Assembly: GCA_964653025.1 (NCBI GenBank)
Contig: CAZZBZ010000001.1
Coordinates: 39,826-103,825, forward strand
Direction: 5' to 3'
Source of the DNA: an uncultured Verrucomicrobiota bacterium
GTDB lineage: Bacteria; Verrucomicrobiota; Verrucomicrobiia; JABWAM01
Length of the DNA stretch: 64,000 nt
Shown here: positions 34,293 to 61,633 of the stretch, piece by piece
Layout: each line of letters begins with the position of its first letter
Position numbering within the stretch: position 1 is the first letter of the stretch
Position numbers and translations under genes: made by a program
Notes under the pieces: model-generated
What the model saw: the letters and a program-made list of their open reading frames with translations, nothing else
Told to the model about the DNA's origin: nothing
Databases searched by the model: none

Positions 34293-35339
34293 TCAGGGGA
34301 CCACCACCGGACGGTCGATCCAGAAAGGGAGCTGCATGCCGCGGCGGAAGGCGGCGAGGGATTTCGGCGAGGAGTTGATGCGGAGGTTACTCCAGGTCTC
34401 ATCGGCATTCTGCCAGCGTTCGTGCCAGTAGACCGCGGCCTTGAGGCGAGGATAGTCCCTCGGCATGCGGTCAAATGCCTCCTCGAAGAAGGCATCCTTA
34501 CTTCCCTGGTTTGGAAACTCCCCGACGCCCCACTCGGCAAACATGATTGGCTTGGTCGGGTGCAGTCTCACGATCTCGTCGTAGGGCATCCGCGCGACAT
34601 CCGTGAAGGTAAGCCAGCCTCCCTTGGAGTTTTGTTTTCCGTAAACACTGAGGCCAAGCCAGTCCACCACATCGTCCCCGGGGTAGTAGGTTTGTATGGT
34701 GTTCCACGAGGCGACCGGCCAGGAGTAGTTCTGGGCGTGGTAGACCCACTCCACGTTGCGGGCGCCCTCGGCGCGCACGATGCCGACGACTCGACGGTAG
34801 GCGGCGATAAAGCGTTCGGGGCCGTCGGCTTTCTTCGGGTCACCGAAGCGGCGGGTTTCCCCGCCGCCCTGCACGGGACCGCCCCACGGGAACCAGTCGC
34901 CGTTCATTTCGATCCCAAAGGCCACGAGGAGCGGGATGCGGGTCGCACGAGCCTTCCGCGCCCAGTCGCGGAGGTAAGCGTCGAACTTCCCCTCGATGAT
35001 CCGGTCGAGGGAATACTCGGGTTGGGGCTCGTTCTGGCGGTAGGGCGGCCCCCACGGCGACCAGAAGATGAGAGGGATGGCGTTTGCGCCCCGCACGACC
35101 TCGACCTGGGCGGAGGGAAATCCCTTCCGTCCCCAATAACTGGAAAAGGCGACGATCGCCTGGCGCCGCCCCGAAAGCTTCTCGAAGGCGGAGATGGTGG
35201 ACGGGGTCAGGTCGTCCTCGGCCTCGCCGAGATCCATGTAGGCGCCGACGTAGGCACCGCGCGGGGGGATGGCGAGGTGCTGGGCGAGAACCGCAAGCGT
35301 CGATGCAAGGAAGAGGATAAGGAAGGGAAGGCGTATCAT
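34293..35339 (-). CDS. Secreted glycoside hydrolase, GH26-like (clan GH-A), last gene of the EPS/exosortase cluster
   Basis: Signal peptide MIRLPFLILFLASTLAVLA. GAYVGAY ... ipLIfwspW ... GKFDAYLRDWA ... LLVAFGIEMNGDWFPWGG matches the GH26 core pattern (..R.gHE.NG.W.pWg). 4-bp overlap with the upstream synthase gene. Confidence 0.6.
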   Translation of the reverse strand: MIRLPFLILFLASTLAVLAQHLAIPPRGAYVGAYMDLGEAEDDLTPSTISAFEKLSGRRQAIVAFSSYWGRKGFPSAQVEVVRGANAIPLIFWSPWGPPYRQNEPQPEYSLDRIIEGKFDAYLRDWARKARATRIPLLVAFGIEMNGDWFPWGGPVQGGGETRRFGDPKKADGPERFIAAYRRVVGIVRAEGARNVEWVYHAQNYSWPVASWNTIQTYYPGDDVVDWLGLSVYGKQNSKGGWLTFTDVARMPYDEIVRLHPTKPIMFAEWGVGEFPNQGSKDAFFEEAFDRMPRDYPRLKAAVYWHERWQNADETWSNLRINSSPKSLAAFRRGMQLPFWIDRPVVVP

Positions 35340-38300
35340 GCGGGAGGGGAGTCTACGTGGACGGTGGCGGTGCGGGGGACTTTTCCCCAGGAAACCAGCG
35401 CCCCGCGAAGGGCGCGGCGGAAAGCGCCCCAGACGACGATGCAGAGGAGGGGGCGGTAGACGAATCGCTGGGGCAGGACCCAGAGGGCCCGGCGTATAGG
35501 TTCGCGGTCGAGTCGAAGGGCGAGCATGGCGAGGAGGGTATCCGAGAGGAGGAAGGCGAGGAGGAAGAGGAGGACAAGGCTGCCCCCGCCGCCGAGGACG
35601 GAGAGGATGACGAGCAGGTCCACGATAGGGGACATGGCGGTGAGAAGAACTTGAAAAAACCAGAGGCTGGGCATCGCGATCCAGCCAAGAGTGCCGGCGC
35701 GCGGGTTGAACAGGGCCTCACGGTGTTTCCAGAGGCATTGGAGGGTGCCGAAGGCCCAACGGAAGCGCTGGCGAAGGAGACCCTTCACCGTTTCCGGGCA
35801 CTCGGTCCAGCCGATGGCGCGATCCGCGTAGGCCACTCGCCAGCCATCCCTTCGGATTTGCATGGTGAGATCGGTATCCTCGGCGAGGGTGTCGGCGGTG
35901 AATCCGCCGGCTTTCGCGACGGCTTCGCGACGATAGGCACCAATGGCCCCCGGCACCACGGTGATGCAGTTGAGGAGGTCGAAGGCGCGGCGGTCGAGGT
36001 TGAAGCCCGAGGTGTATTCCAGGGACTGGAACTTCGCGAGCCAACGGCGGCGGTTGCCCACCCTGGCGTTTCCCGAGACCGCACCGACATTCGGATTGGC
36101 GAGGAGGGGTGGCACGAGGCGAGCCAGCGCACCGCGGCCGATACGGGTATCCGCATCGATGGAGACGAGAAGGTCGTAGCGGGCCGCGGCGATTGCGGCG
36201 CCCAGGGCACCCGCCTTACCGGTGTTTTGCTGGGAGATTCGGCGGACGCGCGGGTCAGTGGCGAAGGCGACGGAGATGACCACGGCGGTGGCGTCGGAGG
36301 AGCCATCGTCCACGACAACGACCTCGAGGGTACCCGGGTAACCACAGTCGAGGACTGCTCGGATCGCAGCCTCGATCACGCGTTCCTCGTTATAGGCGGC
36401 GATGACCACGCTCACAGGCGGGAAGGAGGACGGTGGCGGAAGCGGGGGTCGCCGTGCCTGCCAGAGCGCGAGGGCCGCGATGGCGAGGGAGCGCAGGATC
36501 ACGAGGATCGTGGCGACAATGAGAAAGGCCCAGATGAACTCGATGAAGCCATGGACAACCGAGAGGCCAAAGCTGGTGGCAAGGATGGTATGGCGCTCGG
36601 CATTCGGGGCCGGGGGCATCATCTGGTCGTGGGGTATGCCGGCGAGCTCGCTGGCGGTGACGAATCGCACGGGGCGATGGTGAGAGTCGCGCAGCCAGCG
36701 GATCATGGGACGCAGGGCCTCGACCGTCTGGCGGCGATCCCCTCCCCCATCGTGGAGGAGGACGACCGATCCCTCCGAACGGAGCTGCTGCACGCGTCGA
36801 AGGATTTCGGCGGTGCCGGGGCGCTCCCAGTCCCGGGGGTCGATGTTCTCGCAGAGGGTGAGATAACCGAGTTCCTGCGCGCGGAGGATGGGACGGATCT
36901 CGGCCATCGTCTGGGGACGCGAATCGGCGGAGTAAGGCGGGCGGAAGAGGATGGTCGAGCGGCCGGTGATCGACTCGATGAGCCGCTGCGTGGCATTGAG
37001 TTCGAGGTCAAGTTGGACGCGGGGGGTCTCCGAAAGGTCGGGGTGGGTGTAGGTGTGGACCCCGACCTCGTGCCCTTCACGGACCATGCGGACGAGAAGG
37101 TCGGGGTTTTTCTCGGCGGCGCTGCCGACGATGAAAAAGGTGGCCGTCACCCCCTCGGCCTTCAGGATATCGAGAATCTGTGGCGTCCAGTGGCGGTCGG
37201 GTCCGTCATCGAAGGTGAGGGCGATCCAGTTGGGGGAGACGATACCGCCGTGCTCGACGCGGAGGGGTTTCGGGGGATCGAGATAGCGGACGCGAACGCG
37301 ACCGGAGGGGAGGCGTTCAAAGGTGCGCAGGCCCGACTCACGCTCCGGGTGGATGCGGAGGATCTCTCCCTCGCCGACGTGGACGACTTCGTCGGGAAGC
37401 CTGATCCGGTTAAGAGGTTCCCAGTCGCTTTCCGAGGTCGCACGGCGGCGGGCGAGGACGAGGGCGTCCCACAGGGAGGGATCTTCATCACCGAGTTTCC
37501 AAACAGCGATGCCGGCAACGCCTGCGGAGCGGGCGGCGCGGACCTGGTTGAGGGCGGTGGCCGCGTCAAGGAACCAGACGGTGTGCTGTTCGTCGTCCTT
37601 CGCGTAGGAGAAAGTGGGGTTGCCCTCCTCCCCCGCCCAATCAATTCCCACGGGTTCAGCGCTGTCGGCGAGGCTCATGACCTCGGCAAAGGAGAGGTCC
37701 CTGCCCACAGGGCCGCCGAGAGGCCAATCGCACCCGAAGTTGCCGATGGCGGCAATCCACTGGCCGGGGCGACCAAACTCGAGCATTCGGTGGAGCCAGC
37801 GCTCGAACCATGGCTGCGAGGCGAGCGCACCGGGCGGGTCGTGGCGCGAGTTTTCGTTACAAAGCATCGCAATGAGGTAGTCGGCGTGCTCCACGAGACG
37901 GTCGAGGTCGAAGACGAGGGCGTCCCAGCCGACGGGGACGCAGATCATGAAGAGGAGGCCCTCCTCATGGCAGCGGGTGGCAAAACGGATGAGGAAGTCG
38001 TTGAAGGCATCGCTGTAGGAGGGATCGACCTCCTCGAAGTCCACGGCCAACCCCTCGCAGCGAGCGGATTTCACAAGACGAAGGGCCTTCTCAATAAATG
38101 CGGTGCGGTCAGCCTCGGGGCCGGTGACCAGTGCGGCCATGAGGTCCCCTCGCCACCCTTCAAACTCGTTCGTGAGCAGGGCAATGATCTTGAGGTCGTG
38201 CTGGTGGGCGAGGTGACGAGTCTCTGGTTCCGCGGCAAAGGCGAGGTCGAGGTTTTCGTTGGCGATCGTGATCCAGCGTGGGCAGAGGTGGGTAAGGTGG

Positions 38301-38699
38301 GGCGCCGCACGATCGAGCGCGGCGAGGGTGGAGGGGTTTTCCTCGGGAAGGAAACCGAGGGTGATGGGCTCCGGGGGACGGGGAAAGGCCGCACTCGCGG
38401 AACGCCGGCGATCTCGCTCCGCTGTGCCGAGCGAGTGGCGGAGGGCGGGGGTTTCACTGCGCCGCATCGCGCGGCGCGTATCCCGGAGGGGATGTTGGAG
38501 GCCGCGCAACTGGGAACGGAGGGTAGCGACCGAGGAGGGAAGGCGAAGGAAGGGTTGCTCGAGCAGCGAGCGCGCAAATAACAACGCAGCGGCAAAGAGG
38601 ACAAAGCACCCCAGGAGCGCCGCTACGCGGATGATCTTCCAGCGAAGGCCGCGGGCATCGTGGAAGATAAACTGGCGCGTGGGCGCGGGGACGGTCATC
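35336..38699 (-). CDS. Multidomain membrane polysaccharide synthase/modifier: N-terminal TM + GH18-like (chitinase-fold) domain + CE4 polysaccharide deacetylase (NodB) + processive GT2 synthase (QxxRW) + C-terminal TM bundle
   Basis: About 1121 aa from MTVPAPTRQF, followed by a TM helix. GH18-like block (GLAVDFEEVDP ... GIAVWKLGDEDPSLWD). CE4 block (IALTFDDGPDRHWTPQILDILKAEGVTATFFIVG ... HEVGVHTYTHP ... LLHDGGG). GT2 block (VSVVIAAYNEE ... VVVVDDGSSD ... SIDADT ... QRFRWAFG). Then multiple C-terminal TM helices. The ORF upstream of the chosen start would overlap the preceding gene by about 370 bp and is rejected. Confidence 0.75.
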
Positions 38700-38715
38700 T
38701 CGGGGGACGGAAAGC

Positions 38716-41289
38716 TCAGAACCACGTTCGACGGGAACGGGAGGAGGCGAGCCCGACGTCGTGGGCCGCGAGCTCCACGATCTGGGCCACGCGGTGGCGG
38801 AGTCGCGTGCTCGCCCAGAGGAGGGCGGTAAGCCAGACGGGGACAGCGCAGAACCAGGCGCCGATGAGGCGGTAGCCCTCGGGGGAGGTCGTGGCCTCGA
38901 ATCGGAGCCATGCGAGAAGGCTCAGGACGGCGACGGGGATCCCGACCATCCGCGAGAAGAGAGTGGGGATCGGGTGGAGGCGAATGCGGGTGAGGCGCTT
39001 GCCATCGCCATGTTCCTCGGTGAGGGAGAGGAGACGGACCTGCCACCATCGGTTGCCGTAGACCTGGTAGTCCCAGTTGGTCCAACCCGTGTCGGCGGAG
39101 TACTTCCAGCCCTCCTGGTCGAGGCGCTTCTTGAAGGAAGAGAGGAAATGCTCACGGCCCGAGCCAGAATCGCTCCAGAAGGTGAGCAGGGCGGGACGGT
39201 CCCATTTCACGACCTGGGCACTACTGGGAGCGGGGGCACCGACGATCTTGCGCGGGGTGCGTTTCTTGCGGACCCAGGTGGAGTAACGGGCCCAGCCTCG
39301 GGCGACCGGCTGCCAGAAGGCGAGGGCGGCAATGAGGAGGCGGCTCCACGGGCGGCGGTAGCGCGTCTCGATCCTCGCGCGGAGCGCATAGGAGACCGCG
39401 ATGCCAAGGGATCCGGCAAACATCGCGGCAGGGAGGTACCAGATCGCATGCACCTGCAGCGAGACGAGAAGGGCCGCGAGGGCCATGGCATTCCACTCAA
39501 GGCTGCCCATGAAGAGCACGACATCCGAGGTACGCCCGGGATAGACGCACTGGAAAAGGCCCATTCCAAAGACGCCATGGTAGATGATGGGACGGTGGAC
39601 GACAGAGGAGAAGTTGGCGCCGCCGTAGACGCGGCCGCGCCAGCGGGCGGAGCCGGTCGGCCCGAAGTAGACGAGGTGCTTAAAGCGGAGCAGGGCCTCG
39701 GCCTCGCCATAGCCCTCCTGCTGCTTGAGGTAGGCGCGGACATTGAAGCGGCGGTGATGCCAGACGATGGCGGAGGGGCTGAACCCGATGCGGTACCCCT
39801 GCTGCATGAGCCGCCAGCAGAGATCGACATCGTCGCCCGCCTTGCGGTATTCGGGATCGAAGCCGCCGACGAGATCGAGCGCCCACTTGTGGAAGGCCAT
39901 GTTGCAGCCGGGGATATGCTCGGCCTCCACGTCGTCGATGAGCACGTGGCTGGGCTGGCCCGGGGAGGCGGCAACGCAGGCCTGCACCCAGTTCCGCGCG
40001 GGGGGCGAGATATTCGGACCGCCAACGGAGGCAAAGCCTCCCTGATCGAGCGTGCCGACAAGATAGTAGAGCCAGTCCTTGTCTGCCATGCAGTCACTGT
40101 CGATGTAGGCGATGATCTCGCCGTGCGCGGCCTGCATTCCCACGTTGCGAGCCACGCTCAGGCCGAGGTTCTCTTGGTGGAGGTAGCGGACCTTGGAAAA
40201 CTCGCGGGCAATGGACTCCGTATTGTCGGTGGAGCCATCGTCCACGAGGAGGACCTCGAAGTCGGGATAGTCCATCTGGAGGAGAGAGGTGAGGCATGCC
40301 TCGAGCGTGCGAGCGCCGTTATAGGAGCAGACCACCACGGAGACCGGGGGGGTGCGCGGGAGGGGGACACGGGTGTTGCCCTCAAAAAGGGAGTGGACCC
40401 GGGCGAGGGCTTTTTTGGGCCTTCGATCCGCGCCCACGAGGCCGAACTTCCAGTCTTCGATGAGGTGCCCACCGGTGAACCACTCGTCGGTCCACGAGAA
40501 GAGGATTGTGCCAGCGAGGCCAAGGCGGGCGACCGCGCTGATGTGCCAGCCCAGCAGTTCAGCCTGTTCCTCCTCGGAGTGGCGCACGGTGTCCATGCCA
40601 AACTCGCTGATGATGAGGGGCTTCTCCCCGGCAAGGTTCTGCAGGCGGGCGAGGTAACCCTCGAAGTCCCGCTGGCGATGCAGGTAGACATTGTACGAGA
40701 AGAAATCCACGGCATTCGGCAGGAGGTACTCAGTGGGAGGATAGTTCGCGTAGGTGAGGAGCGGACGGGGGTCGGCTTGGCGGGCGGCGTCTACGAGATC
40801 CTCGAGGAAGGCCTCGACCTTTCGGGACCCGTACCAGCGGACGATGCTGGTCGGGATCTCGTTGCCCACCGCCCAGGCGAATAGCGCGGGATGGCCCCGT
40901 CGCTCGCGGGCGGCGCTCTCCACGCGACGGAGGATGGATCGGCGGCTCCGCCGCCCATCGAGGAAACAGACGTGCTGCTCCCATGGAATCGTGGCGTACG
41001 CCTTGAGCCCCGCACGCTCGCACTCGTCAAGGAACCAGACCGGAGGAGGGTGGTAAAGGCGGACCGTGTTGATGCCTGCCGCAGTCATCTGCGTGAAGTC
41101 GGCGCGCACCTTCGCGGGTTCCGGAAGGAATATGGGGGCGCCCCCCTCATCACGGGGCGGGAACGGCCCGTAAGTCACCCCCTTGACGAAGAACTTACGC
41201 CCGCCGTGGAAGAAAAACTTCGAGTTGGCGACGATGCGAGGGGCGCTCGTGCGAACGACTTCAACTTCGTCCATGGAATCCTGAGACAT
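38716..41289 (-). CDS. Fused glycoside hydrolase (clan GH-A TIM barrel) + family 2 glycosyltransferase with C-terminal membrane domain
   Basis: 857 aa. N-terminal GH-A block with acid/base FAWAVGNEIP and nucleophile LIISEFGMD. GT2 block PPVSVVVCSYNGARTLEACLTSLLQMDYPDFEVLLVDDGSTDNT ... YIDSDC. About 6 TM helices in the C-terminal 300 aa. Confidence 0.7.
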   Translation of the reverse strand: MSQDSMDEVEVVRTSAPRIVANSKFFFHGGRKFFVKGVTYGPFPPRDEGGAPIFLPEPAKVRADFTQMTAAGINTVRLYHPPPVWFLDECERAGLKAYATIPWEQHVCFLDGRRSRRSILRRVESAARERRGHPALFAWAVGNEIPTSIVRWYGSRKVEAFLEDLVDAARQADPRPLLTYANYPPTEYLLPNAVDFFSYNVYLHRQRDFEGYLARLQNLAGEKPLIISEFGMDTVRHSEEEQAELLGWHISAVARLGLAGTILFSWTDEWFTGGHLIEDWKFGLVGADRRPKKALARVHSLFEGNTRVPLPRTPPVSVVVCSYNGARTLEACLTSLLQMDYPDFEVLLVDDGSTDNTESIAREFSKVRYLHQENLGLSVARNVGMQAAHGEIIAYIDSDCMADKDWLYYLVGTLDQGGFASVGGPNISPPARNWVQACVAASPGQPSHVLIDDVEAEHIPGCNMAFHKWALDLVGGFDPEYRKAGDDVDLCWRLMQQGYRIGFSPSAIVWHHRRFNVRAYLKQQEGYGEAEALLRFKHLVYFGPTGSARWRGRVYGGANFSSVVHRPIIYHGVFGMGLFQCVYPGRTSDVVLFMGSLEWNAMALAALLVSLQVHAIWYLPAAMFAGSLGIAVSYALRARIETRYRRPWSRLLIAALAFWQPVARGWARYSTWVRKKRTPRKIVGAPAPSSAQVVKWDRPALLTFWSDSGSGREHFLSSFKKRLDQEGWKYSADTGWTNWDYQVYGNRWWQVRLLSLTEEHGDGKRLTRIRLHPIPTLFSRMVGIPVAVLSLLAWLRFEATTSPEGYRLIGAWFCAVPVWLTALLWASTRLRHRVAQIVELAAHDVGLASSRSRRTWF

Positions 41290-41306: not shown

Positions 41307-42611
41307 TCAGAGACGGACCCGATCCTTGAATGCGTTGATGCCCTTGATCAGGTCCACGGCGCGATCGAGTTGGACGTCACGCACGGGAGTTTTCTTGCTG
41401 CCATCAGGAAGGAACTCTTCGGGCTTGGGCTCGTCCTTCTTCGTGGGGTCGGCAGCCTGGCTGCGTTGGAGGAGGATCTGGTTCCACTCCTCGTCGCTCA
41501 TGGGGACGGCGATGTCGGGGGTGATCCCGTGCTCGTGGATGACCTTGCGGCTGGGGGTGTAGTACTTCGCGGTGGTGAGACGGATGGCACAGTTGCCCTT
41601 CACGGGGATCACGCTCTGGACGGAGCCCTTCCCGAAGCTGGTCTCGCCAACAATCACGGCGCGCCGGGTGTCCTGAAGGGCACCGGCCACGATCTCGGAG
41701 CCGCTGGCGCTGCCCTCGTTGATCAAGACGACGAGCGGATAGTCGGGGTGAGGCTTGGCAGAGCGGACGCGGTATTCCTGTTTCACGGCGGGATTGCGTC
41801 CCTCGGTAAAGACGACGAGGTCGCCCTTGGGAAGGAACTTGCCCGCGACGTCCACAGCGGAATCGAGAAGGCCGCCGGGATTATTACGCAAATCCAGGAC
41901 CAGGCCGTTGAGTCCGTCTTTTTCGAGCTTCTGCAGGGCCTTTTCGAATTCGTCGGCGGTGGGCTCGTTAAACTGGACGATGCGGACATAGCCAATCTTA
42001 CTCTCCATGACGCGGGCGTCCTTGACGCTCTCCACCTTGATCATGGCGCGGATAATCGGGATATCCTTCACCTCGCGGCTACTGGGGCGGAGAATGGTAA
42101 TCGTGACCTTGGTGCCCGGGACGCCGCGGAGCTGCTTGACGGCATCGCCGAGGGGCAGGCGGTCGGTGGACTTGCCCTCGATGCGGATGATCTTGTCGTT
42201 GGGGAGGAGCCCGGCCTTGAAACCGGGGGTGTCCTCCATGGGAGAGATGACCGTGAGGATGCCATCCTTCATCCCCACGACAACCCCGATGCCGCCGAAC
42301 TGGCCGCCCGTCTCCTGCTTCATCTCCTCGTAGCCGGTGGGCTCCATGAACTGGCTGTGGGGGTCAAGCCCGCCGAGCATTCCCTTGAGGGCGCTGTAAG
42401 TAAGGTCCTGGTAACTGAGTTTGGAGCCATCCACATAGTCCTTGCGGATGATTTCCATGACGCTCGTGAAGAGCTCGACGTTGCGGTAGGCGGACTCCTT
42501 CTCCTTGTCCTTGTCGTCCGCGGCCGCGGAGAGGGTCTGGACACGCCACCCGAGAACGAGATTTCCAAGGAGGAGGAGTAGGACCAGGAAGGCGGGCAAT
42601 CGTCGACGCAT
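41307..42611 (-). CDS. ctpA: Carboxyl-terminal processing protease (S41 family, CtpA-like) with PDZ domain
   Basis: Signal/TM N-terminus. PDZ (GIGVVVGMKDGILTVISPMEDTPGFKAGLLPNDKIIRIEG). S41 catalytic region (VLINEGSASGSEIVAGALQD ... GETSFGKGSVQ). Confidence 0.85.
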   Translation of the reverse strand: MRRRLPAFLVLLLLLGNLVLGWRVQTLSAAADDKDKEKESAYRNVELFTSVMEIIRKDYVDGSKLSYQDLTYSALKGMLGGLDPHSQFMEPTGYEEMKQETGGQFGGIGVVVGMKDGILTVISPMEDTPGFKAGLLPNDKIIRIEGKSTDRLPLGDAVKQLRGVPGTKVTITILRPSSREVKDIPIIRAMIKVESVKDARVMESKIGYVRIVQFNEPTADEFEKALQKLEKDGLNGLVLDLRNNPGGLLDSAVDVAGKFLPKGDLVVFTEGRNPAVKQEYRVRSAKPHPDYPLVVLINEGSASGSEIVAGALQDTRRAVIVGETSFGKGSVQSVIPVKGNCAIRLTTAKYYTPSRKVIHEHGITPDIAVPMSDEEWNQILLQRSQAADPTKKDEPKPEEFLPDGSKKTPVRDVQLDRAVDLIKGINAFKDRVRL

Positions 42612-42625
42612 GGGGATGGCGGGGA

Positions 42626-43585
42626 TCAAACCTTGTCTTTGAAGAAGTCGATGGTTTTCTGAAGGCCCTCGGCGAGTTGGACGCGGGGCTCCCAACCGAG
42701 AAGCTTCCTGGCGAGAGAGATATCGGGGCGGCGCTGCTTCGGGTCATCCACGGGGAGCGGTTTCTCGACAAGGGTGCTTCGGCTTCCGGTCACGCGGATG
42801 ATCTGCTCGGCAAACTGGCGGACGGTGAGCTCGGCGGGGTTGCCGATGTTGACGGGGCCGTGATGGGGCGAGGTCGCGAGGCGGAAGATGCCATCAATGA
42901 GATCGCTCGCGAAGCAAAAGCTGCGGGTCTGGGAACCGTTCCCGAAGATGGTGAGAGGTTCGCCGCGAAGGGCCTGGCCGATGAAGGCGGGAACGACACG
43001 CCCGTCGCGCAGGCGCATGCGGGGGCCATAGGTGTTGAAGATACGGACCACCTTGACGTCCACGCCATGGGCGCGGTGGTAGGCGAAAGTCATGGCCTCG
43101 GCGAAGCGCTTGGCCTCGTCGTAGACACCGCGCGGGCCGATCGGGTTCACGTTGCCCCAATAGTCCTCGGTCTGGGGGTGGACGAGCGGGTCGCCGTAGA
43201 CCTCGGAGGTGGAGGCGAGGATGAAGCGGGCGTTCTTGGAATGCGCGAGGCCAAGGGCCTTGTGGGTGCCGAGAGACCCGACCTTGAGGGTCTGGATGGG
43301 AAGCTCGAGGTAGTCGATCGGGCTGGCGGGGGAGGCGAAGTGGAAGATGAAGTCCACGGAGCCCGGGTAGAAAAGGTATTCGGTGACATCCTGATGGATG
43401 AAGCGGAAGTGGGAGTTGCCGGCGAGGTGGGCGATATTCTCGATGTTGCCGGTGATGAGGTTGTCGAGGGCGACGACAAAGTGGCCCTCGGCGAGAAGGC
43501 GATCGCAGAGGTGGGAGCCGAGGAAGCCGGCGCCTCCGGTGACGATGGAGACGGGATGCGCTTTGGAGGGAGTGGGATTGGTCAT
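42626..43585 (-). CDS. uxs: UDP-glucuronate decarboxylase (UDP-xylose synthase)
   Basis: [33 protein letters not shown] ... [40 protein letters not shown] ... [11 protein letters not shown] ... DGRVV ... GNGSQTRSF. Near-colinear with eukaryotic and bacterial UXS. Confidence 0.85.
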
Positions 43586-43598
43586 GGGGAAAGGGGGT

Positions 43599-44993
43599 TC
43601 AGCGGGCGCCAGCGCCCGTGAGAACCACAGGGATTGTTTTCATGAGGATTTTCAAGTCGAGCCAGAAACTCCAGTTGTCCACGTACTCGAGATCGAGGCG
43701 GGCCCACTCGTCGAAACTGTGGATGCGATTGCGGCCGCTGACCTGCCAGAGGCAGGCGAGGCCGGGTTTCACGCTGAGGCGGCGGCGGTGGTGGAGCTTG
43801 GAAATCTGATGGGTTTCATAGACCGGGAGGGGGCGTGGGCCGACGAGGCTCATCTCACCCTTCAAGACATTCCAAAATTGGGGGAACTCATCAATGCTGG
43901 TGCGGCGCAGGAATGCGCCGACGCGGGTAATACGGGGGTCCTTGCCGATCTTGAAGACGGGTCCGTCCATCTCGTTGAAGGCGACGAGCTCGGAGCGGAG
44001 CATATCGGCATTGGAGACCATGCTGCGAAACTTGAACATGCGGAACACGCGGCCGCGAAGGCCGCTCCGTTCCTGGACAAAGAAGATCGGGCCGCGGGAC
44101 TCAATGCGGATGGCGATCGCGGCGAGCGTCATGAGGGGAAGGGTCAGGATCAGGCTGAGGACGGAGACGGTAATGTCGAGCAGGCGCTTGGCAAGGAACT
44201 GCCAGAGGGAGGGATGCCTGGCAACGAAGAGGATGGTGGGGTGACCAAGAATCGTCTCGAAGCTGGCGGTCGCGAGGTGGGGTTTGAGGGCCTCGCTGAG
44301 GAGCCATGCCTCGACACCCTGAAGCTCGCAGATGGTTACGGCCTTTTGGATCCCCTCGAAGCCGGCGTGAGGAACGCGAAAGATGACGGCGCTGATCGGC
44401 TCGCGGTTGAGCCAGTCGGAGACGGAAGTCTCCAGGCTGTCGAGGATCGAGACCTCGCCCACGACGGTGAGGTTCATCTCGGTTTGCAAACAAATCTGCT
44501 CCCTCAGGGCAATCAGGTGCTCGGGGGAGCCGACGAGGAGAACGCCGGAGGGCGGGCTTTTGCCCTGAAAGAAGAAGTCGAGGACATCCCTGAGGAAGAA
44601 GTGGCGGAGAGAGATCAGGGCGAAACCGATTGCGGCAAAGAGGATCACCACGCCGCGGGCGAGGTTGCCCATCTTGAACATGAAGATGAGGAGGCCGCAC
44701 ATCAGCAGCAGCAGGAACATTGCCTGGCCAAGGCAGAAGAAGAAGGTGCCCGGCTTGTCGAGAAGACCCCTTCGGTAAACCAAGCAGGAATCGAGGATCA
44801 ACGGGCCGAGGATCACCACGAAGACCAGCAGAGGGGCAAATCCCTCGAAGGAGCTGATGCGCGGAAGATCCCATCCCGGCAGGTCGGAGGCACGGAAACG
44901 TAGACCGTGGCCGCCCCAGAGGGCGAACCCCAGCAGAACGCCGTCAGCGAGCTGGGAGAGGAGGCTGCGCAGTTCTTTTTGTTGCGAGAGCAT
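43599..44993 (-). CDS. Polyprenyl-phosphate sugar phosphotransferase (WbaP/EpsB-type 'bacterial sugar transferase'; exosortase-associated priming glycosyltransferase)
   Basis: N-terminal multi-TM region. C-terminal catalytic domain ... [26 protein letters not shown] ... [21 protein letters not shown]. Start at MLSQQ; the upstream extension is unsupported. Confidence 0.8.
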
Positions 44994-45001
44994 GGAGTTT
45001 T

Positions 45002-45694
45002 CTATCCCGTCGTCTTCTGAAAGAGGGGAACGGCCTGTTGGAGAAAACTCCGCAGAGCCTCCTCGGTTTCTTTCTCGCGTCCGGGAGGCGGGTTCACAAT
45101 CAGGGCCACGTACGCCCAACGGTGATGCACGTTGAAGAAGATGCGGTCGAAGGCCGTCCAGAGCACGCGGTTCAGGTGGCGCGGGGTGAGGCGGTTCTTG
45201 CCCACGAACCAGTAGCAGTACCAGTTGCGGGAGGAAACCGATCTCCCATCGGGCGCCTTCCCCTCCCGCGAGATCACGAGGCGCATCAGGTCGAGGTTGT
45301 ACACGCGGGGAGAGGACATCGGCACGCGGAGGAGGCCTCCCTGGCTAAGGCGCCAGCCCTGGCCGACAAGGCAGGCCTCGGCGGCATGGATGCTGGAGCG
45401 GTCGCGCCCGCTCAGGACGAGCCCGAGGAAGATCTCCCGCCCTTTCGGGTCGCGGTAGACCTTGCGGGCGAACTCGGTATCCGCACCGAGATAGTCGCGT
45501 TCGATCTGGGAGACGGGGGCGTCCTGGCCAACCCAGTCGCCAATTCGTGTGGGGAGTTGCATCGAGACCCCCGCGATGGCCTCGGCCGCCACGTCGGTGG
45601 TCTTGAGCGTGACGGCGAGGGTGGCGAGCACCAGCGCGATGAGGATCGCGGTCAGTGCGAGGGGATGGGATGGGCCCCGTGGGGAGAGTTTCAT
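45002..45694 (-). CDS. epsI: EpsI-family exosortase-associated protein
   Basis: 230 aa. Single N-terminal TM (LALTAILIALVLATLAVTL), then a periplasmic domain. Positioned immediately downstream of the exosortase, as in XrtA/EpsH-EpsI systems. Confidence 0.65.
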   Translation of the reverse strand: MKLSPRGPSHPLALTAILIALVLATLAVTLKTTDVAAEAIAGVSMQLPTRIGDWVGQDAPVSQIERDYLGADTEFARKVYRDPKGREIFLGLVLSGRDRSSIHAAEACLVGQGWRLSQGGLLRVPMSSPRVYNLDLMRLVISREGKAPDGRSVSSRNWYCYWFVGKNRLTPRHLNRVLWTAFDRIFFNVHHRWAYVALIVNPPPGREKETEEALRSFLQQAVPLFQKTTG

Positions 45695-45703
45695 GAGGGC
45701 GGG

Positions 45704-46858
45704 TCAGGGCTTGGTGACAGGGGTGGACTGGGGCAGCCGCTGGGGAAGGGCGGCGAGGAAACGCACCTTCGCGACGGCATAGTCGGCGTTAATCAAACGG
45801 CTGACTCCGACGAGAAGCAGGACGACCACGAGGAAGATGAGGAAGCCGAACCACTCGTGGACCACGTTTCCGGCCTTCTGACCAAAGCACTGGGCGGCGA
45901 TGATGATCGAGGTGATGCGGACGATGTTGCCGGCCACGGCGAGAGGGAGGCCCGAGAGGCAGAGCACAATCTTCTTCCACGCTTCCCGCTGGGTCACGTA
46001 GCCGTAAATAAGCGAGAGCATGATAATCGCTGTGAGCGAGCGGATCCCGCTGCAGGCCGGGGCGACGTCGTACTGGTAGGCCCCGGTGGGGTCGAAGATG
46101 CGGGTGCCGTCGCGCATCACGCCGATCCCGAGGGCCTGGCCGATGTCGGTGGAGACGATCGTCACCAGCATGCGCATCGGGAAGGCGACGAGCGTTTCGA
46201 GGAAGTTCATGGGGATCATGAACACGAGAAAGGCAAACGGAAAAGCCATGGCCCGGGCCCTGCGAAACCCCTGCAGGCACACGACAAGGGACCAGAGCAG
46301 GAGGAGGAGGGCGAGGACGCTGGCGCGCGGGATCTGCCCGCGCATCCCCATCCAGTGGAGGAGGAGGGCAAAGAGGGCGGGGATGAGGCCCCGCGAGTCG
46401 GGGGCGGCGGGGCATTCGAGGATGGCCTTGCGGTTCCACCAGAGCAGGCCGAGCGAGATGAACGGGACGAGGGGGCCGTGGGAGCTGTCGTAGATGGGGT
46501 CGTTCCAGGCGATCCAGAGCCAGTTGAAGAGGGAGGTGCCGAATTTACTGACCCAGATGCTATTTCCCGCCTTAAAAAACAGCAGGGAGACGCATCCCAG
46601 CAGGACCATCGCCAGCCAGAAGCTCGCGCGACGAAGGCGTCGAGGCAGATCGGCGAGCGCAGCGACTTCCCGCAGGAAAGAGGAGAGTTCGGCGCGAAAG
46701 TGCCAAGCAGCGGCCGCGAGCCCGGCGAGCACAACCAGGATGACCGACGGGTTGGATGCGCCCCCTTCCACTTGCGCGGCATCCCCTGCCGCGAAGAGCG
46801 GGGAGACGGTCCCGAGGAGGGACAGGATGACCGACGGGAGGTATCTGCGACGGCTCAT
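45704..46858 (-). CDS. Exosortase (Xrt/EpsH family transmembrane transpeptidase)
   Basis: 8-TM protein with conserved exosortase motifs ... APACSGIRSL (active-site Cys) ... NIVRITSIIIAA (Arg) ... 384 aa. Confidence 0.8.
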   Translation of the reverse strand: MSRRRYLPSVILSLLGTVSPLFAAGDAAQVEGGASNPSVILVVLAGLAAAAWHFRAELSSFLREVAALADLPRRLRRASFWLAMVLLGCVSLLFFKAGNSIWVSKFGTSLFNWLWIAWNDPIYDSSHGPLVPFISLGLLWWNRKAILECPAAPDSRGLIPALFALLLHWMGMRGQIPRASVLALLLLLWSLVVCLQGFRRARAMAFPFAFLVFMIPMNFLETLVAFPMRMLVTIVSTDIGQALGIGVMRDGTRIFDPTGAYQYDVAPACSGIRSLTAIIMLSLIYGYVTQREAWKKIVLCLSGLPLAVAGNIVRITSIIIAAQCFGQKAGNVVHEWFGFLIFLVVVLLLVGVSRLINADYAVAKVRFLAALPQRLPQSTPVTKP

Positions 46859-46888
46859 GCAAATGTCTGGCGTGGATTCATGTTTGGG

Positions 46889-49402
46889 TCAGTTCGCTCC
46901 CGCGTGCTCTGCCTGCAAGCGGCGGAGACGCTCCTCGGCCTCGGTGCGGCAGGGGAGCTTGGCATCGATCATTCGACGCAAAACCCGTGCCGCCCCGCGC
47001 CAATCCTTCTGGCTCTCCAGGATCCGCTCGGCTTCGAGCCCACCGCGGCAGATCCAGTAGAACTCACGACCCTCGGGGGTCCCACTCGGGGCAGGCTTCT
47101 CATACAGCGGAGCGAGGTGACTTTCCAGCGCCTTTGTAAGGTCGCCCATCGTTTCCCAGGTCTTCCCCATCTCGACGAGGGCCTGGTTGCGAAGGGCGGC
47201 ATCGGCTTTGGGAGAATCGAGGACCGTCTTGAAGGCGGCAAGCGCTTCCTCGTTGCGCTTGAGTTGGCGCAGGCACTGGCCGCGACGGCCCTGCGCCTCG
47301 ATTACCCGCTCGGGGAGTGGCTGAGGCTTGCCGGTCTCGACAGGCTTGACGAGATCCTCAAAGACTTTGAGGGATTCCTGGAACTTGCCGCGCTCCGCGA
47401 GGATGTCGCCGTAAAGAAACCACGCTTCGGGGACCCAGGGCGAATCGGGGTAATCCTTCACGAGCGCCTCGATGAGGCGCCGCGCATCGTCCCTGGCCTG
47501 CCCGAGGCGATGGGCGGCGCGCGCGGCAAAGTAGGTGGCCTCCGGGGCCAGCGGGTGAGCGGGGGCGTTTTTTCGAAGGAGCTCGAACTGCTCCTGGGCC
47601 TTCGCGTGATTGCGAGCGCGATCGTACCAGGCCCCGAGCCAGAACTGCGCCTCGATGGCGGCGGGGGAACGCGGGAAGGCCCGTACGACGCCCTCGAACT
47701 CGGCGACCGCCTTTTCGGGGGACTCGGTATGTTCCATGCAATGCGCACGGACGAGCATGGCGCGGGGAGCGAGATCGTGCTTGGGAAACCTTTCGAGAAA
47801 GGTCGAGGCGGCCTCGGAACCTTCCTTCACCCTTCCGATCGCGTGAAGCGTCTCGGCGTAATCGAGCCATGTGCGGGGAGCGATGGGGGAGTTGGGAAAC
47901 TGGTCGAGGAGGGCGCGGAGCGCCTCCGCGGCCTTCGTGGGTTGTCCTTGGCGGCGGGAGGCGTCCGCTGAGAGAAGAAGAAACTCGGCGCCAAGGCGTC
48001 CGGAGGGGAAGGCGGCAGTGTGTGCGGCTTGAAGGCGGGCCACCTCGGCGGGCTTTCCCGCACGAAGCCACGCACTCGCCCCCTGGTAAAGCGCCTGCTC
48101 GGGCACAGCAGGGTCGATGCCCTTGACCTGCGCGGCCTTCGCAAAGGCGTCGGCCGCGGCCTCGAACTGCTGGCGCTCCATATTGAGGTCGCCGATCTTC
48201 AGCAATGCCTCCGCCTGCACCTGCGGGGTGCGCGCGCGGTCGGCGGCCTTCTGAAACTCAGAGGCGGCAGACTCGAACTTCTTGTCCTCGAGGAAGACCC
48301 ATCCAAGCTGGAGGTGGGCCTGGTCGTTCCATGCGCCGTTGGGATACTTCTCGAAGAAGTCCTGAAAGGCCTGGATCGCTTGATCGCGACGATCGGCGCG
48401 CTTCCAGAGGACACCGACCTGAAGGAAGAGCGCCTCACCAAAAGAGGTCCCCTTCGCCTCGCCTGCCCACTCGGCAAGGCGGTCGGCGAGCACGCGCGGT
48501 TTGTCGAGCTTGAGATAGGCCCCGGTCAGGGCGTCGACGCAGCGGAGGCGGAATGAGGAATCGGTGCTGGTGCGGAAGGCTTGCTCATATTGGGCGGCGG
48601 CCGCGGCCTGATTGCCGGCGGCGGCCTCAATCTCGCCGAGACGCAAGCGCGCAAGGGGAGCAATGCTGCGAGCCTCGGGATTCTCCGATTTTGCGATGGA
48701 CTCAAAGCGGGCGCGCGCCGACTCGGTCAGTTTACGTTCCAACTCGACCTCCCCGAGGGAGAGGGCGGCCTGGAAGCCGATGCCGCTTTTTGCCTCCTCC
48801 TTCGCGAGGCGGCCGAGGACCTGCGCGGCCTCGTCGTACTTCTTTTGCTGGGCAAGGCAGGTGCCGAGGGAGAGGGTGGCCTGCGCGGCAATGTCCTTGC
48901 GGGATTCCTTTTGCAGGGCACGGAACATCTCCTGGGCGGCATCGAACTTGCGGTCGAGCGCCAGGGCGCGCGCCATCCCGTAGCGCGCCTCCGGCAGATA
49001 ACGGCTCTTCGGGAAGTTTTTGGAGAAGGCCTCAAACGTCTTTGATGCGGCCTCGCCGAGCCCCCCCCGCAACTGGGCCTCGCCCAAGAGCAGGGAGAGG
49101 CCGTCCTGCCATTCGGGGCTGGAGGAGGGAAGAACCGATTCGATCGCAAGCTGTGCCCCCTGCCAGTCGCCGGCATTGAGGCGGGCCCGGGCGAGGAGCC
49201 AGGAACCCTCATCCCGCGCCTCCGATTGAGGAAACTGGGTGAGGAGCTTCTCGAACTGCGCGGCGGCCACCTCGTTCAGATGGTCCTCAAGCGCCTTGCG
49301 CCCGAACGCGATCAGGCGCTTTTCCTCTTTCGAAAGGTCGGCGTGCGCCACCGTGGCCAGCGAGGCCACCGCGAGGAGCAGAGCAAAGAATGCGCAGTTC
49401 AT
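46889..49402 (-). CDS. Large secreted TPR-repeat protein (PrsT-like PEP-CTERM-system TPR protein)
   Basis: 837 aa. Signal peptide [21 protein letters not shown], then about 20 TPR-like repeats throughout. Located directly upstream of the exosortase, as PrsT is in PEP-CTERM/EPS loci. 4-bp overlap with uvrA. Confidence 0.55.
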   Translation of the reverse strand: MNCAFFALLLAVASLATVAHADLSKEEKRLIAFGRKALEDHLNEVAAAQFEKLLTQFPQSEARDEGSWLLARARLNAGDWQGAQLAIESVLPSSSPEWQDGLSLLLGEAQLRGGLGEAASKTFEAFSKNFPKSRYLPEARYGMARALALDRKFDAAQEMFRALQKESRKDIAAQATLSLGTCLAQQKKYDEAAQVLGRLAKEEAKSGIGFQAALSLGEVELERKLTESARARFESIAKSENPEARSIAPLARLRLGEIEAAAGNQAAAAAQYEQAFRTSTDSSFRLRCVDALTGAYLKLDKPRVLADRLAEWAGEAKGTSFGEALFLQVGVLWKRADRRDQAIQAFQDFFEKYPNGAWNDQAHLQLGWVFLEDKKFESAASEFQKAADRARTPQVQAEALLKIGDLNMERQQFEAAADAFAKAAQVKGIDPAVPEQALYQGASAWLRAGKPAEVARLQAAHTAAFPSGRLGAEFLLLSADASRRQGQPTKAAEALRALLDQFPNSPIAPRTWLDYAETLHAIGRVKEGSEAASTFLERFPKHDLAPRAMLVRAHCMEHTESPEKAVAEFEGVVRAFPRSPAAIEAQFWLGAWYDRARNHAKAQEQFELLRKNAPAHPLAPEATYFAARAAHRLGQARDDARRLIEALVKDYPDSPWVPEAWFLYGDILAERGKFQESLKVFEDLVKPVETGKPQPLPERVIEAQGRRGQCLRQLKRNEEALAAFKTVLDSPKADAALRNQALVEMGKTWETMGDLTKALESHLAPLYEKPAPSGTPEGREFYWICRGGLEAERILESQKDWRGAARVLRRMIDAKLPCRTEAEERLRRLQAEHAGAN

Positions 49403-53523: not shown

Positions 53524-55404
53524 TCACTTCGCGGCGGGAGCGTTCGTCGAAACCGCGGAAGCCGCAAGAGACGGTTTCGTGAGAAAGTCGGCAGTCAGGA
53601 TCAGAAAATCATCGCGGGTGATCTGGGTGAGGAGCAGCTGATTCTTCCAGATGAGGCTGTTCGTGCCACCGACCTCGCGGGCGACCACCAACTCCTGGGT
53701 CACCGTCTTGCCCTCAACCTCGCAGGTCAGCATCAGGACCGCGGCGGGCGGGTCGAAGCCCTGCTGCTTCGCGGTTTCATTGAGCGCGACGCCTTCGATC
53801 CTCGCCACCTCGAAGCGCTGAAAGCGGTTAAGAAGCCGCTGCCACGGGGTCTCATTCAGAACGCCCGAGGCACCCTCACCCACCCTCCATTTGCCCTCCT
53901 TCGTCTTTTCCATGACAAGGGTGGACTTCCCCTTCTTCACGGTCACCGACTTGATTGTGTCCTTCTTGATCTCGAAAAGCACGCGGGAGCGCAGTTCCAG
54001 CGCACTTTTCGGAAGCGCGGCGGCATCGGCAGCGTCCACGGCGTAAATCGAGGATTCGTCGGCGCGCTTCACGTAAGCAAGCTTCTTCACGGGATCGGCC
54101 TTGCCCACCGCAAGGTCAAGAAGCACGGTCGCAGCGGCGCTGGCCACGGCGGGAGGGGCGTTGGTCTCCGCGGGTGCGGGGACCTTGGGCTCGCCGGCGC
54201 GGTCGCGCAAGACTACCTGCCCAAGCGGAGCCTTGAGTCCGTACTTGTCGAGGTCGGTGAGGACGTCGGCCGCAAACTCCTTCACCTGCATTCCTGAGAG
54301 GCGTGCGAGGAACTTGTCCACGAGCTCGTTGTCGGCGGCCACCTTCTCGGGCTGGATAATCCGCCACTGGTCATTCGTCTTCTGGAGGAGAAGGGTCGCG
54401 GCGCGGTTGCGCACCTCGATCTCGCGAATGTCGGCGGCCGCGAAAGGGGCGACGTCACGGTCGCGGATCTCGTTGAGTGGGCGCGCCGCATCGGCGGCGA
54501 AGGCAACCGGGACGGAGACGATGGAGTTCTGGCCCTTCACGCGGGCAGCAAGCTTCTTGTCGTCGGACTTGAGCTTCGCGCCGAGAGTGAGGGTATTGAC
54601 CGCGTCCTGTTTCTCAATGCGAACGCTGATCTCCTGCGAGGGCTCCTCAATGCCGTATTCCCGCGAGGCAGCGGGGTCCTCGCTCAGGAAATCGTCGGCA
54701 CGCAGCGAGGCCAGTTGACGAAGAAACTCCTCCACCCTGTTGCGATCGGCGCGGGCGTTGAGGGGCTGGACGATCCGCCAGTTCTGATTGGTACGCGCGA
54801 GCTCGACAAGTTTGCCCGCGGCCCGCAACTCGATGCGCTGAACCTGGTCTCCCGTAAACTCGAAGAGCGAGCGCTCGCGGTAATCCTCGATCTTCTTCTC
54901 GATGCGAGTCGCAAGGTACTTGTCCACGAGGTGGACCTCCTTGCTCCCCTTCACCTGGACGTAGAGGGCGTCCCCCTGGCGCGCCTCGTTTCCGAGGAAG
55001 AGGGTGCTCTCGGATTTTGGGGTGCGAAGGGTGACGGATGCGCGAGGCTTCTCGAGTCCGTAGTCGGCAAGGGTAAGCTTTGCCTCGGAGATGGCGCGCT
55101 CGGAAAGGCGGCGGCGGCTCTCAAGAAACTCAAGGCCACTGAGGATCCCGTCCATCTCGCCCGAGGCAGCGCGCACCTGGAGGGGACGGGAGAAGGACCA
55201 CTTGCCCTGCTTGCGATCGAAGACAAAGTCGCGGTCGGCACCCTTGATCTCAAGGCGAGTGACGTCGACGGCCTTGAAGTCGAGGACGCGCCTCTGTTGC
55301 TCGGAAGCCTGGTCGGTGGTGGGGAGCTTCTTTTTCGCAAGGAAATACCCTCCCGCGACCAGTGCCGTGAGCAGGAGAAGGGTGAGCGTGCTCTTGATTT
55401 TCAT
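53524..55404 (-). CDS. GldG-associated periplasmic protein (DUF4340-like), terminal gene of the Gld-like ABC operon
   Basis: 626 aa. N-terminal TM anchor (LTLLLLTALVAGGYFLA), then a long soluble region with repeated modules. Position after gldG-like as in the conserved gldA-gldF-gldG-DUF4340 arrangement. Family call is by synteny and recognition only. Confidence 0.5.
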   Translation of the reverse strand: MKIKSTLTLLLLTALVAGGYFLAKKKLPTTDQASEQQRRVLDFKAVDVTRLEIKGADRDFVFDRKQGKWSFSRPLQVRAASGEMDGILSGLEFLESRRRLSERAISEAKLTLADYGLEKPRASVTLRTPKSESTLFLGNEARQGDALYVQVKGSKEVHLVDKYLATRIEKKIEDYRERSLFEFTGDQVQRIELRAAGKLVELARTNQNWRIVQPLNARADRNRVEEFLRQLASLRADDFLSEDPAASREYGIEEPSQEISVRIEKQDAVNTLTLGAKLKSDDKKLAARVKGQNSIVSVPVAFAADAARPLNEIRDRDVAPFAAADIREIEVRNRAATLLLQKTNDQWRIIQPEKVAADNELVDKFLARLSGMQVKEFAADVLTDLDKYGLKAPLGQVVLRDRAGEPKVPAPAETNAPPAVASAAATVLLDLAVGKADPVKKLAYVKRADESSIYAVDAADAAALPKSALELRSRVLFEIKKDTIKSVTVKKGKSTLVMEKTKEGKWRVGEGASGVLNETPWQRLLNRFQRFEVARIEGVALNETAKQQGFDPPAAVLMLTCEVEGKTVTQELVVAREVGGTNSLIWKNQLLLTQITRDDFLILTADFLTKPSLAASAVSTNAPAAK

Positions 55405-55429
55405 CGGCGGCAGTGGGCGCGAAAGGCGA

Positions 55430-56914: not shown

Positions 56915-56939
56915 GTTCGAATGAAGTTGAGAAATTTGG

Positions 56940-57689: not shown

Positions 57690-57693
57690 AATC

Positions 57694-61623: not shown

Positions 61624-61633
61624 CCAATCCGCC

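Follow-up and report, generated by a model that had tools for sequence, protein, structure and literature searches.

A GH18-CE4-GT2 fusion protein of an uncultured Verrucomicrobiota bacterium as a putative self-contained exopolysaccharide synthase

The current study deals with a single gene on a 64,000-nucleotide (nt) stretch of DNA, hereafter called the window, from an uncultured Verrucomicrobiota bacterium of the lineage JABWAM01 (GenBank assembly GCA_964653025.1, contig CAZZBZ010000001.1, positions 39,826 to 103,825 of the forward strand). The gene (35336-38698, minus strand; stop codon, 35336-35338) encodes a protein of 1120 amino acids (aa), in which a glycoside hydrolase barrel of family GH18, a de-N-acetylase of family CE4, and a processive glycosyltransferase of family GT2 are joined on one chain. 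This protein is a member of a widespread family without a reported function; the principle of the fusion is known from MatB of Streptomyces, and the architecture itself is found in the databases. With moderate confidence, the observations are best explained overall by a self-contained, synthase-dependent exopolysaccharide (EPS) machine of the PgaC/IcaA/MatB type.

The G+C content of the window is about 65%, spurious open reading frames (ORFs) are numerous, and the gene map was cleaned by a filter based on codon-position G+C. The start of the target gene was placed at the ATG at position 38698, and not at the beginning of the longest minus-strand frame (35336..39085), because all close homologues (73-100% identity) begin there and have a length of 1120 aa each. 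The gene itself had been correctly recognized in a first-pass annotation made from the sequence alone, but its end (38699) and its length (1121 aa) were each off by one. The motifs quoted there are all present, i.e., TFDDGP at residues 495-500, H548/H552, DDGSSD at 797-802, DAD at 848-850, QRFRW at 977-981, and DFEEV at 220-224. A promoter and terminator scan around the operon revealed nothing that exceeded the shuffled expectation.

The proposed order of GH18, CE4, a transmembrane (TM) segment, GT2, and a TM bundle was borne out by Pfam, PDB phmmer, Foldseek, and an AlphaFold2 (AF2) model. The latter was built on 79 homologues (alignment A1) and reached a mean predicted local distance difference test (pLDDT) score of 89.1 and a predicted template modeling score (pTM) of 0.71. 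In the model, TM helix 1 (residues 18-46) and a disordered stretch (61-82) are followed by the GH18 barrel (112-415), a beta-sandwich (438-484), and the CE4 domain (491-693), while the C-terminal half comprises a long helix with TM helix 2 (699-748), the GT2 domain (762-990), and three or four TM helices (999-1098). The N-terminal TM helix and the beta-sandwich between GH18 and CE4 are elements that the model added to the earlier description. A Pfam scan gave no match for the sandwich domain at residues 421-488. The parts of the protein and the gene that follows it are listed below.

35336..38698, minus strand: whole target protein with GH18, beta-sandwich, CE4, TM, GT2, and TM bundle (Pfam, homologues, AF2)
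38560..38698, minus strand: residues 1-46, predicted cytoplasmic N-terminus with a conserved motif, then TM helix 1 at 18-46 (hydropathy; AF2 pLDDT of ~90)
38384..38559, minus strand: residues 47-105, Arg-rich, poorly conserved linker (AF2 pLDDT of <50 at 61-82; lowest identity of all segments)
37439..38383, minus strand: residues 106-420, GH18 (beta/alpha)8 barrel of the SleL/YaaH/YdhD/5jh8 subgroup (PDB phmmer, Foldseek, motifs)
37235..37438, minus strand: residues 421-488, small beta-sandwich linker domain with strands at 438-484 (AF2 pLDDT of 85-90)
36614..37234, minus strand: residues 489-695, CE4/NodB-type deacetylase with five motifs (Pfam, NCBIfam, PDB phmmer, Foldseek)
36449..36613, minus strand: residues 696-750, single long helix (699-748) with TM helix 2, predicted to lead the chain back to the cytoplasm (hydropathy, AF2)
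35714..36448, minus strand: residues 751-995, catalytic domain of a GT2 processive synthase (Pfam, NCBIfam, conservation, Foldseek)
35339..35713, minus strand: residues 996-1120, C-terminal TM bundle with helices at 999-1035, 1039-1063, and 1068-1098 (hydropathy, AF2, Foldseek, MatB alignment)
34293-35339, minus strand: secreted GH26 enzyme (Lic26A/CelH-like) of 348 aa, whose start overlaps the target stop (ATGA)

The signatures of CE4 and of a GT2 synthase, for which a database check had been recommended, were both detected with Pfam scores of 117.6 and 113 bits, respectively. The CE4 match covers residues 489-592 (cut-off, 23.1 bits), the NCBIfam model NodB is matched with 138 bits, and the best structure matches are 7y51 (PDB phmmer; E value of 1.4e-33) and Bc1960 (4l1g; Foldseek TM-score of 0.85). 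The five CE4 motifs are complete (TFD497D498GP, H548-x3-H552, R586-P-P-Y589, D623-W624, and L-L-H649-D); D497, D498, H548, H552, R586, D623, and H649 are invariant among the 79 homologues, with Tyr at the position of Y589 in 70 and Trp at the position of W624 in 78 of them. Pfam families of GT2 match residues 760-1050 with 89-113 bits, far over their cut-offs, and the synthase part was aligned by Foldseek with hyaluronan synthase (HAS; 9yq5 and 8smn) and BcsA (4p00) at E values of 1e-14 to 1e-17. Invariance also holds for D798/D802, D848-A-D850, E940-D941, and Q977-x-x-R980 of the synthase, and the Trp of QxxRW (W981) is retained in 78/79 sequences. Because the catalytic residues are invariant in the homologues, both the CE4 and the GT2 domain are predicted to be active.

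The positively charged N-terminus, the presence of one TM helix on either side of the GH18-CE4 block, and the positive residues right after TM helix 2 would point to a cytoplasmic location of both the N-terminus and GT2 and to a periplasmic one of GH18 and CE4. The query resembles a PgaC-like synthase whose two N-terminal membrane helices appear to be separated by a periplasmic block of about 650 residues. The earlier proposal that the three domains are coupled at the membrane agrees with the two helices that flank this block according to hydropathy and AF2, and the C-terminal TM bundle and TM helices 1 and 2 would jointly make up the translocation channel. Just ahead of TM helix 1, the homologues share the confidently modelled motif (V/I)-F12-x-D14-x-x-G-(R/K)-R19-W20 (residues 11-20; 38639-38668, minus strand), with F12 conserved in 75, D14 in 71, and R19 in 75 of the 79 sequences. 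The motif is typical of the tri-domain proteins and absent from MatB, and it may be involved in the docking or the regulation of the GT2 domain.

The closest known system is MatB (SCO2962) of Streptomyces, which consists of an extracellular CE4 domain, one TM helix, and an intracellular GT2 domain (van Dissel et al. 2018, PMC5972031). Streptomyces needs MatB along with MatA to form a dispersin-B-sensitive, F598-reactive poly-N-acetylglucosamine (PNAG) (PMC5972031). The Streptomyces mat loci were fetched, and their layout of a LysR gene, a small ORF (MatA), MatB, and an acyltransferase gene equals that of the published mat cluster. Residues 492-1114 of the query are collinear with the MatB orthologue (40% identity over 631 columns; E value of 5e-144), and both proteins have an N-terminal TM helix, an extracytoplasmic CE4 domain, a second TM helix, a cytoplasmic PgaC-like GT2 domain, and a C-terminal TM bundle as well as the same NCBIfam score profile. 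In contrast to the query, MatB has neither the GH18 barrel nor the beta-sandwich, needs the small protein MatA, and precedes an IcaC-like acyltransferase; neither of these two genes adjoins the query. The possibility that MatA represents a split-off GH18 domain was rejected, as the small ORF is without similarity to the N-terminal region of the query. Judged from the alignment, the query is in effect a MatB with an N-terminal GH18 barrel and a beta-sandwich added. The fusion of synthase and deacetylase is already known, since MatB with its CE4-TM-GT2 architecture has been shown to make PNAG, and the added GH18 domain is the new part.

The Pga and Ica systems also comprise a GT2 synthase, a CE4 de-N-acetylase, and a periplasmic TIM-barrel glycoside hydrolase. 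The statement of the first-pass annotation that these functions reside on separate proteins, with CE4 followed by the glycoside hydrolase domain in PgaB, agrees with the literature (PMC5933820). The GT2 domain of the query is 34% identical to Escherichia coli PgaC (E value of 3e-54), and its periplasmic part shows 26% identity with the CE4 domain of PgaB over 129 aa; no GH153 similarity was found in the comparison with the C-terminal half of PgaB. Whereas PgaB carries CE4 in front of GH153 and is located at the outer membrane, GH18 precedes CE4 in the query, which is tethered to the inner membrane. No PgaD, PgaA, or cyclic di-GMP module was found, and no PgaD/IcaD-type gene is located within the 17-nt upstream gap or the 4-nt downstream overlap of the target, while small ORFs elsewhere were not systematically searched.

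A word-indexed search for full-length relatives retrieved more than 100 proteins of 1060-1300 aa in which all three Pfam families recur; their sources are Verrucomicrobia, Chthoniobacterales, Acidobacteria, Gemmatimonadota, Armatimonadota, Sphingomonas, Competibacteraceae, and Neobacillus/Bacillus. The names of these proteins are only generic, e.g., "polysaccharide deacetylase family protein" or "glycosyltransferase." When the GH18 and beta-sandwich region was searched exhaustively, 131 representatives were obtained at E values of 1e-30 or lower. Of the best 150 matches of this search, 72 possess a CE4 motif as well as QxxRW, and the tri-domain layout thus extends to no fewer than about 70 clusters at 50% identity. 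The novelty of the domain order that had been implied earlier was therefore overstated: MatB-type fusions are known, and the layout is common in the databases. In the literature, "GH18-CE4-GT2" was tabulated for Acetivibrio cellulolyticus ZP_09465738 in a 2012 genome paper (PMC3413522), and Bundalovic-Torma et al. described PgaB-like deacetylases that are fused to GT domains in operons without pgaA/pgaD, with PNAG production unconfirmed (PMC7112194). Apart from this table entry and the general remark on deacetylase-GT fusions, no functional study of the tri-domain architecture was found. The database proteins share the full-length architecture with the query at 33-87% identity, and none has a reported function; the query clade differs from them by a Cys-Asn pair in GH18 and a linked GH26 gene. 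Three longer variants of the family, P0144 (1541 aa), P0145 (1549 aa), and P0168 (1513 aa), seem to be extended by additional modules at the N-terminus; P0144 and P0145 match the GH18 region at about residues 550-890, and two GH18-like stretches were found.

Outside the Verrucomicrobia, EPS genes are absent from the neighbourhood of the gene in Bacillus sp. T3, Sphingomonas phyllosphaerae, a metagenome-assembled genome (MAG) of the Competibacteraceae, a MAG of the Pyrinomonadaceae, one other genome, and a plasmid of Bacillus nitratireducens. Its occurrence as a lone gene in these six contexts is consistent with a self-sufficient enzyme. The plasmid in question is the conjugative pBM02-1 (NZ_CP047367.1), on which a homologue of 1116 aa with a 53% identical GT2 core (L090, 4721-8071) stands alone beside spore-germination genes. 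This location suggests that the single-gene system is horizontally mobile.

The N-terminal domain is related to GH18, as had been supposed. The Pfam match (PF00704, residues 195-403) remains below the threshold (23.8 bits; cut-off, 29.6 bits), yet the relationship is clear from PDB phmmer (5jh8, E value of 1.8e-13; also 4wiw, SleL 4s3j, YaaH 4s3k, and YdhD 3cz8) and Foldseek (4s3k, E value of 2.5e-22; 5jh8, TM-score of 0.87 and root-mean-square deviation of 2.6 Å), and a PF00704 match is precomputed for most homologues. The residues D220-F-E222 align with the last Asp and the catalytic Glu of the DxxDxDxE motif, and the Glu whose presence had been left to be checked is E222. Across A1, this Asp is kept in 73 and the Glu in 74 of the 79 sequences. 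The middle Asp of the motif is missing in the whole family, with Ala in the query, and it is likewise absent from 5jh8 (INVDFE), 4wiw (VVIDFE), and SleL (IHFDFE); the structure titles of 4s3j and 4s3k describe cortex-lytic enzymes. The first-pass annotation had taken DFEEV as a possible sign of a binding or chain-length ruler module. This argument fails because D220-x-E222 with the catalytic Glu is retained and the SleL/5jh8/4wiw subgroup lacks the same middle Asp. SleL, YaaH, YdhD, and 5jh8 of Chromobacterium violaceum have the barrel (TM-scores of up to 0.87) and G-x3-D-F-E without the middle Asp in common with the query. In contrast to the latter, they are soluble or LysM-bearing, act on spore cortex or chitin-like substrates, and keep M-x-Y-D at the position where the query has M-L-C-N.

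The Tyr-Asp pair of the GH18 motif MxYD is needed for substrate-assisted catalysis. The corresponding residues of the query are M278-L-C280-N281, compared with IMSYDE, VMTYDH, and IMTYDW in solved structures. D-x-E and Y-D occur together in 54/79 sequences of A1. The Cys-Asn pair is shared by the query and its four closest relatives, and the Tyr is replaced by His in eleven further sequences, nearly all of them from a Verrucomicrobia/Chthoniobacterales-like clade. Within the query clade, the identity amounts to 73-83% for GH18 and 74-89% for GT2. The comparison with the 78% homologue resulted in approximate dN/dS values, at a dS of about 1, of 0.15 for GH18, 0.16 for GT2, and 0.05 for CE4. Based on these sequence comparisons, the GH18 domain of the query is not decaying but under purifying selection. 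As the retention of Glu, Asp, and Y-D is the pattern of a selected active enzyme, GH18 is probably an active enzyme across the family, and we conclude that the domain of the query is constrained, but altered or weakened in its catalysis. The earlier idea of a non-hydrolytic or weakened GH18 domain is thus partly supported for the query clade with its Cys280-Asn281 and not for the family, which largely retains D-x-E and Y-D.

The GH26 gene is located directly 3' of the synthase gene in 5/5 Verrucomicrobial contexts (the window and the loci of homologues with 78%, 56%, 53%, and 43% identity) versus 0/6 genomes or plasmids from other phyla, and the other neighbours differ among the five Verrucomicrobial contexts. 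Its counterparts (L003, 13360-14412; L088, 10380-11510; L089, 10372-11490) often overlap the stop codon of the synthase gene as well. The encoded enzyme has a signal peptide, matches the GH26 family of Pfam with 43.3 bits (cut-off, 20.2 bits), and can be aligned over the full length with Lic26A of Clostridium thermocellum (2bv9; E value of 1.9e-24), including both catalytic Glu residues (IEMNGDWFPW/MFAEWG versus HEANGDWYPW/IIAEFA in Lic26A). The Y-D pair of GH18 is retained in 5/26 sequences of the GH26-carrying clade versus 50/53 elsewhere. Since the loss of the Tyr is concentrated in the GH26-bearing clade, this distribution suggests that the hydrolase role may have been handed over from GH18 to GH26 in Verrucomicrobia.

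With respect to the product, sequence comparisons bring the GT2 domain nearer to PgaC than to NodC: the query reaches 210.9 bits with the NCBIfam model PgaC_IcaA, similar to the 197 bits of the PNAG-making MatB orthologue, versus 107.4 bits with NodC, and tblastn searches of the GT core against annotated plasmid genes gave 104-130 bits for pgaC/hmsR versus 62-84 bits for nodC. A PNAG-like product is moderately favoured over a chitosan-like one. In the proposed mechanism, the cytoplasmic GT2 domain would polymerise UDP-N-acetylglucosamine (UDP-GlcNAc) processively, and the nascent chain would pass through a channel formed by the TM helices of the protein itself, as the fold suggests. GH18 and CE4 would be tethered in the periplasm above the channel exit, where CE4 would partly de-N-acetylate the emerging chain and thereby generate a cationic adhesive polymer comparable to de-N-acetylated PNAG (dPNAG). 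The GH18 barrel would engage the same chain and, in most family members, probably cut or release the polymer. In the Pga system, cleavage and release are the role of the GH153 domain of PgaB. The Cys-Asn variant of GH18 in the Verrucomicrobial clade would more likely bind and guide the chain, or cleave it weakly, and the co-transcribed secreted GH26 enzyme would then provide chain hydrolysis. The identities and the order of the domains, the logic of the topology, the conservation of residues, the homology to MatB, and the linkage of the genes rest on the data presented here, whereas the GlcNAc substrate and its linkage, the effect of GH18 and GH26 on the product, the spatial arrangement of channel exit, CE4, and GH18, and the route across the outer membrane are inferences.

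Several observations weigh against this explanation. With 210.9 bits, the query misses the cut-off of the PgaC_IcaA equivalog (TIGR03937; 422.3 bits); the MatB orthologue also fails with 197 bits, and E. coli PgaC reaches 648 bits. For both periplasmic domains, the nearest relatives are enzymes of beta-1,4 GlcNAc substrates or of peptidoglycan, and no GH18 enzyme is known to cleave beta-1,6 PNAG. The GH26 enzyme most resembles a beta-1,3-1,4-glucanase and not a hydrolase of GlcNAc polymers, and the correlation between Tyr loss and GH26 is imperfect, as P0007 keeps Y-D yet has a GH26 gene. The target gene has no linked component for export across the outer membrane. The beta-1,4 bias of CE4 is not decisive, because the CE4 domain of MatB has the same bias (PMC5972031).

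A chitin/chitosan-type machine, in which GT2 would form a beta-1,4 GlcNAc chain, CE4 would convert it into a chitosan-like polymer, and GH18 would trim it as a true chitinase-type hydrolase or transglycosylase, is a possible but less probable explanation. It would fit the relationship of the GH18 domain to chitinase-fold/SleL enzymes that act on beta-1,4 GlcNAc linkages and the CE4 domain, whose best matches are the NodB, PdaB, and PgdA models and the structures of chitin/peptidoglycan deacetylases, and not PgaB. A weak Chitin_synth_2 match (42.9 bits) and the 127 bits of a Sphingomonas family member on the NodC model point in the same direction. However, the GT2 core is consistently nearer to PgaC/HmsR than to NodC, and MatB has a like CE4 profile together with a Chitin_synth_2 match, although the product of MatB showed the behaviour of beta-1,6 PNAG rather than that of a beta-1,4 glycan stained by calcofluor (PMC5972031).

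The closeness to solved structures of the spore-cortex peptidoglycan hydrolases SleL, YaaH, and YdhD and of the peptidoglycan GlcNAc deacetylases Bc1960, PgdA, and PdaC, as well as the presence of the family in thick-walled Bacillota, might also indicate that peptidoglycan, and not the product, is the substrate of GH18 and CE4 in the periplasm. The two domains would then cut and deacetylate the wall locally, so that the nascent polymer could pass or be anchored. This appears improbable: Pfam detected no LysM or other peptidoglycan-binding module in the query, unlike in SleL and YaaH, the homologous CE4 domain of MatB has been assigned to polymer deacetylation (PMC5972031), the short inner-membrane leash suits a substrate that leaves the channel, and the family is equally common in thin-walled diderms. 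Similarly unlikely is a role of the GH18-like domain as a non-catalytic binding or chain-length ruler module throughout the family. The absence of the middle Asp of DxxDxDxE from all members and the additional loss of the Tyr-Asp pair from the query clade would be in line with such a role, but the retention of the catalytic Glu (74/79), the adjacent Asp (73/79), and Y-D (54/79) is that of an active enzyme, and the SleL-type enzymes, likewise without this middle Asp, are cortex-lytic hydrolases according to their structure titles.

Upstream of the target gene, the window contains the following genes, and beyond the GH26 gene convergent housekeeping genes are located.

38716-41289, minus strand: TIM-barrel and GT2 protein of 857 aa, 17 nt upstream of the target
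41307-42695, minus strand: S41 C-terminal processing protease
42626-43585, minus strand: NAD-dependent epimerase/dehydratase
43599-45119, minus strand: EPS priming glycosylphosphotransferase
45002-45694, minus strand: EpsI
45704-46858, minus strand: exosortase of the EpsH subfamily, under the XrtA cut-off
46889-49402, minus strand: TPR protein of 837 aa

The exosortase/EpsI/TPR/priming-transferase block (41307-49402) was rejected as a part of the system. It is absent beside the 78% homologue and all other homologues examined, and it is regarded as a mere adjacency because the linkage is not conserved in homologous loci. In the 857-aa protein, which has no signal peptide, a clan-A-like TIM barrel at the N-terminus (weak matches to GH2_C and GH72) is joined to a GT2 domain in which DDGSTD and DSD are present and QxxRW is missing, and TM helices form the C-terminal end; its best NCBIfam match is the mycofactocin glycosyltransferase MftF, under the cut-off. 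The fusion of a cytoplasmic GH-like domain to a membrane GT2 is unusual. The gene is found beside the target only in the 78% homologue and is absent at P0007, P0009, and P0015, and it is uncertain whether it belongs to the system of the target. The locus of the 78% homologue also harbours an Alginate_exp gene for an AlgE-like outer-membrane porin (L003, 4458-5879, minus strand), which lies on the opposite strand, two genes upstream of the pair of synthase genes, and is a candidate for the outer-membrane exit. No equivalent was seen in the scanned part of the window.

Synthase-dependent exopolysaccharide systems such as Pga, Ica, Pel, Bcs, and alginate usually consist of several proteins. The coupling of synthesis to deacetylation and cleavage is an open mechanistic question, and the tri-domain family places the three activities on one chain. 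As the gene often stands alone, even on a conjugative plasmid, it offers a minimal system for structural work, e.g., by cryo-electron microscopy of synthesis and modification in one particle, and the family might be used for the engineering of partly deacetylated GlcNAc polymers. The role of GH18 would be extended to biosynthetic processing, and the Verrucomicrobial clade, which lost Tyr-Asp and gained GH26, represents a natural experiment on the hand-over of a hydrolase function. Tentatively, GH18-CE4-GT2 may be regarded as a portable single-gene EPS system that performs synthesis, export, de-N-acetylation, and cutting or transglycosylation without a partner. This might be the first case in which GH18 was recruited as the dedicated processing hydrolase of a synthase-dependent pathway, possibly on a beta-1,6 or mixed substrate, and the Verrucomicrobial GH18 domain might have become a non-hydrolytic chain guide after the takeover by GH26.

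Two further features of the window deserve mention. A cluster of four genes on the minus strand (53524-58629) encodes an ABC ATPase, an ABC-2 permease, an ABC_transp_aux/DUF7088 protein, and a DUF4340 protein and resembles a gliding-associated or uncharacterised ABC export system. An ORF of 241 aa on the plus strand (61553-62278) shows weak Pfam matches to the Ras and Arf small GTPases (32 and 31 bits) and is possibly an MglA-like bacterial small GTPase.

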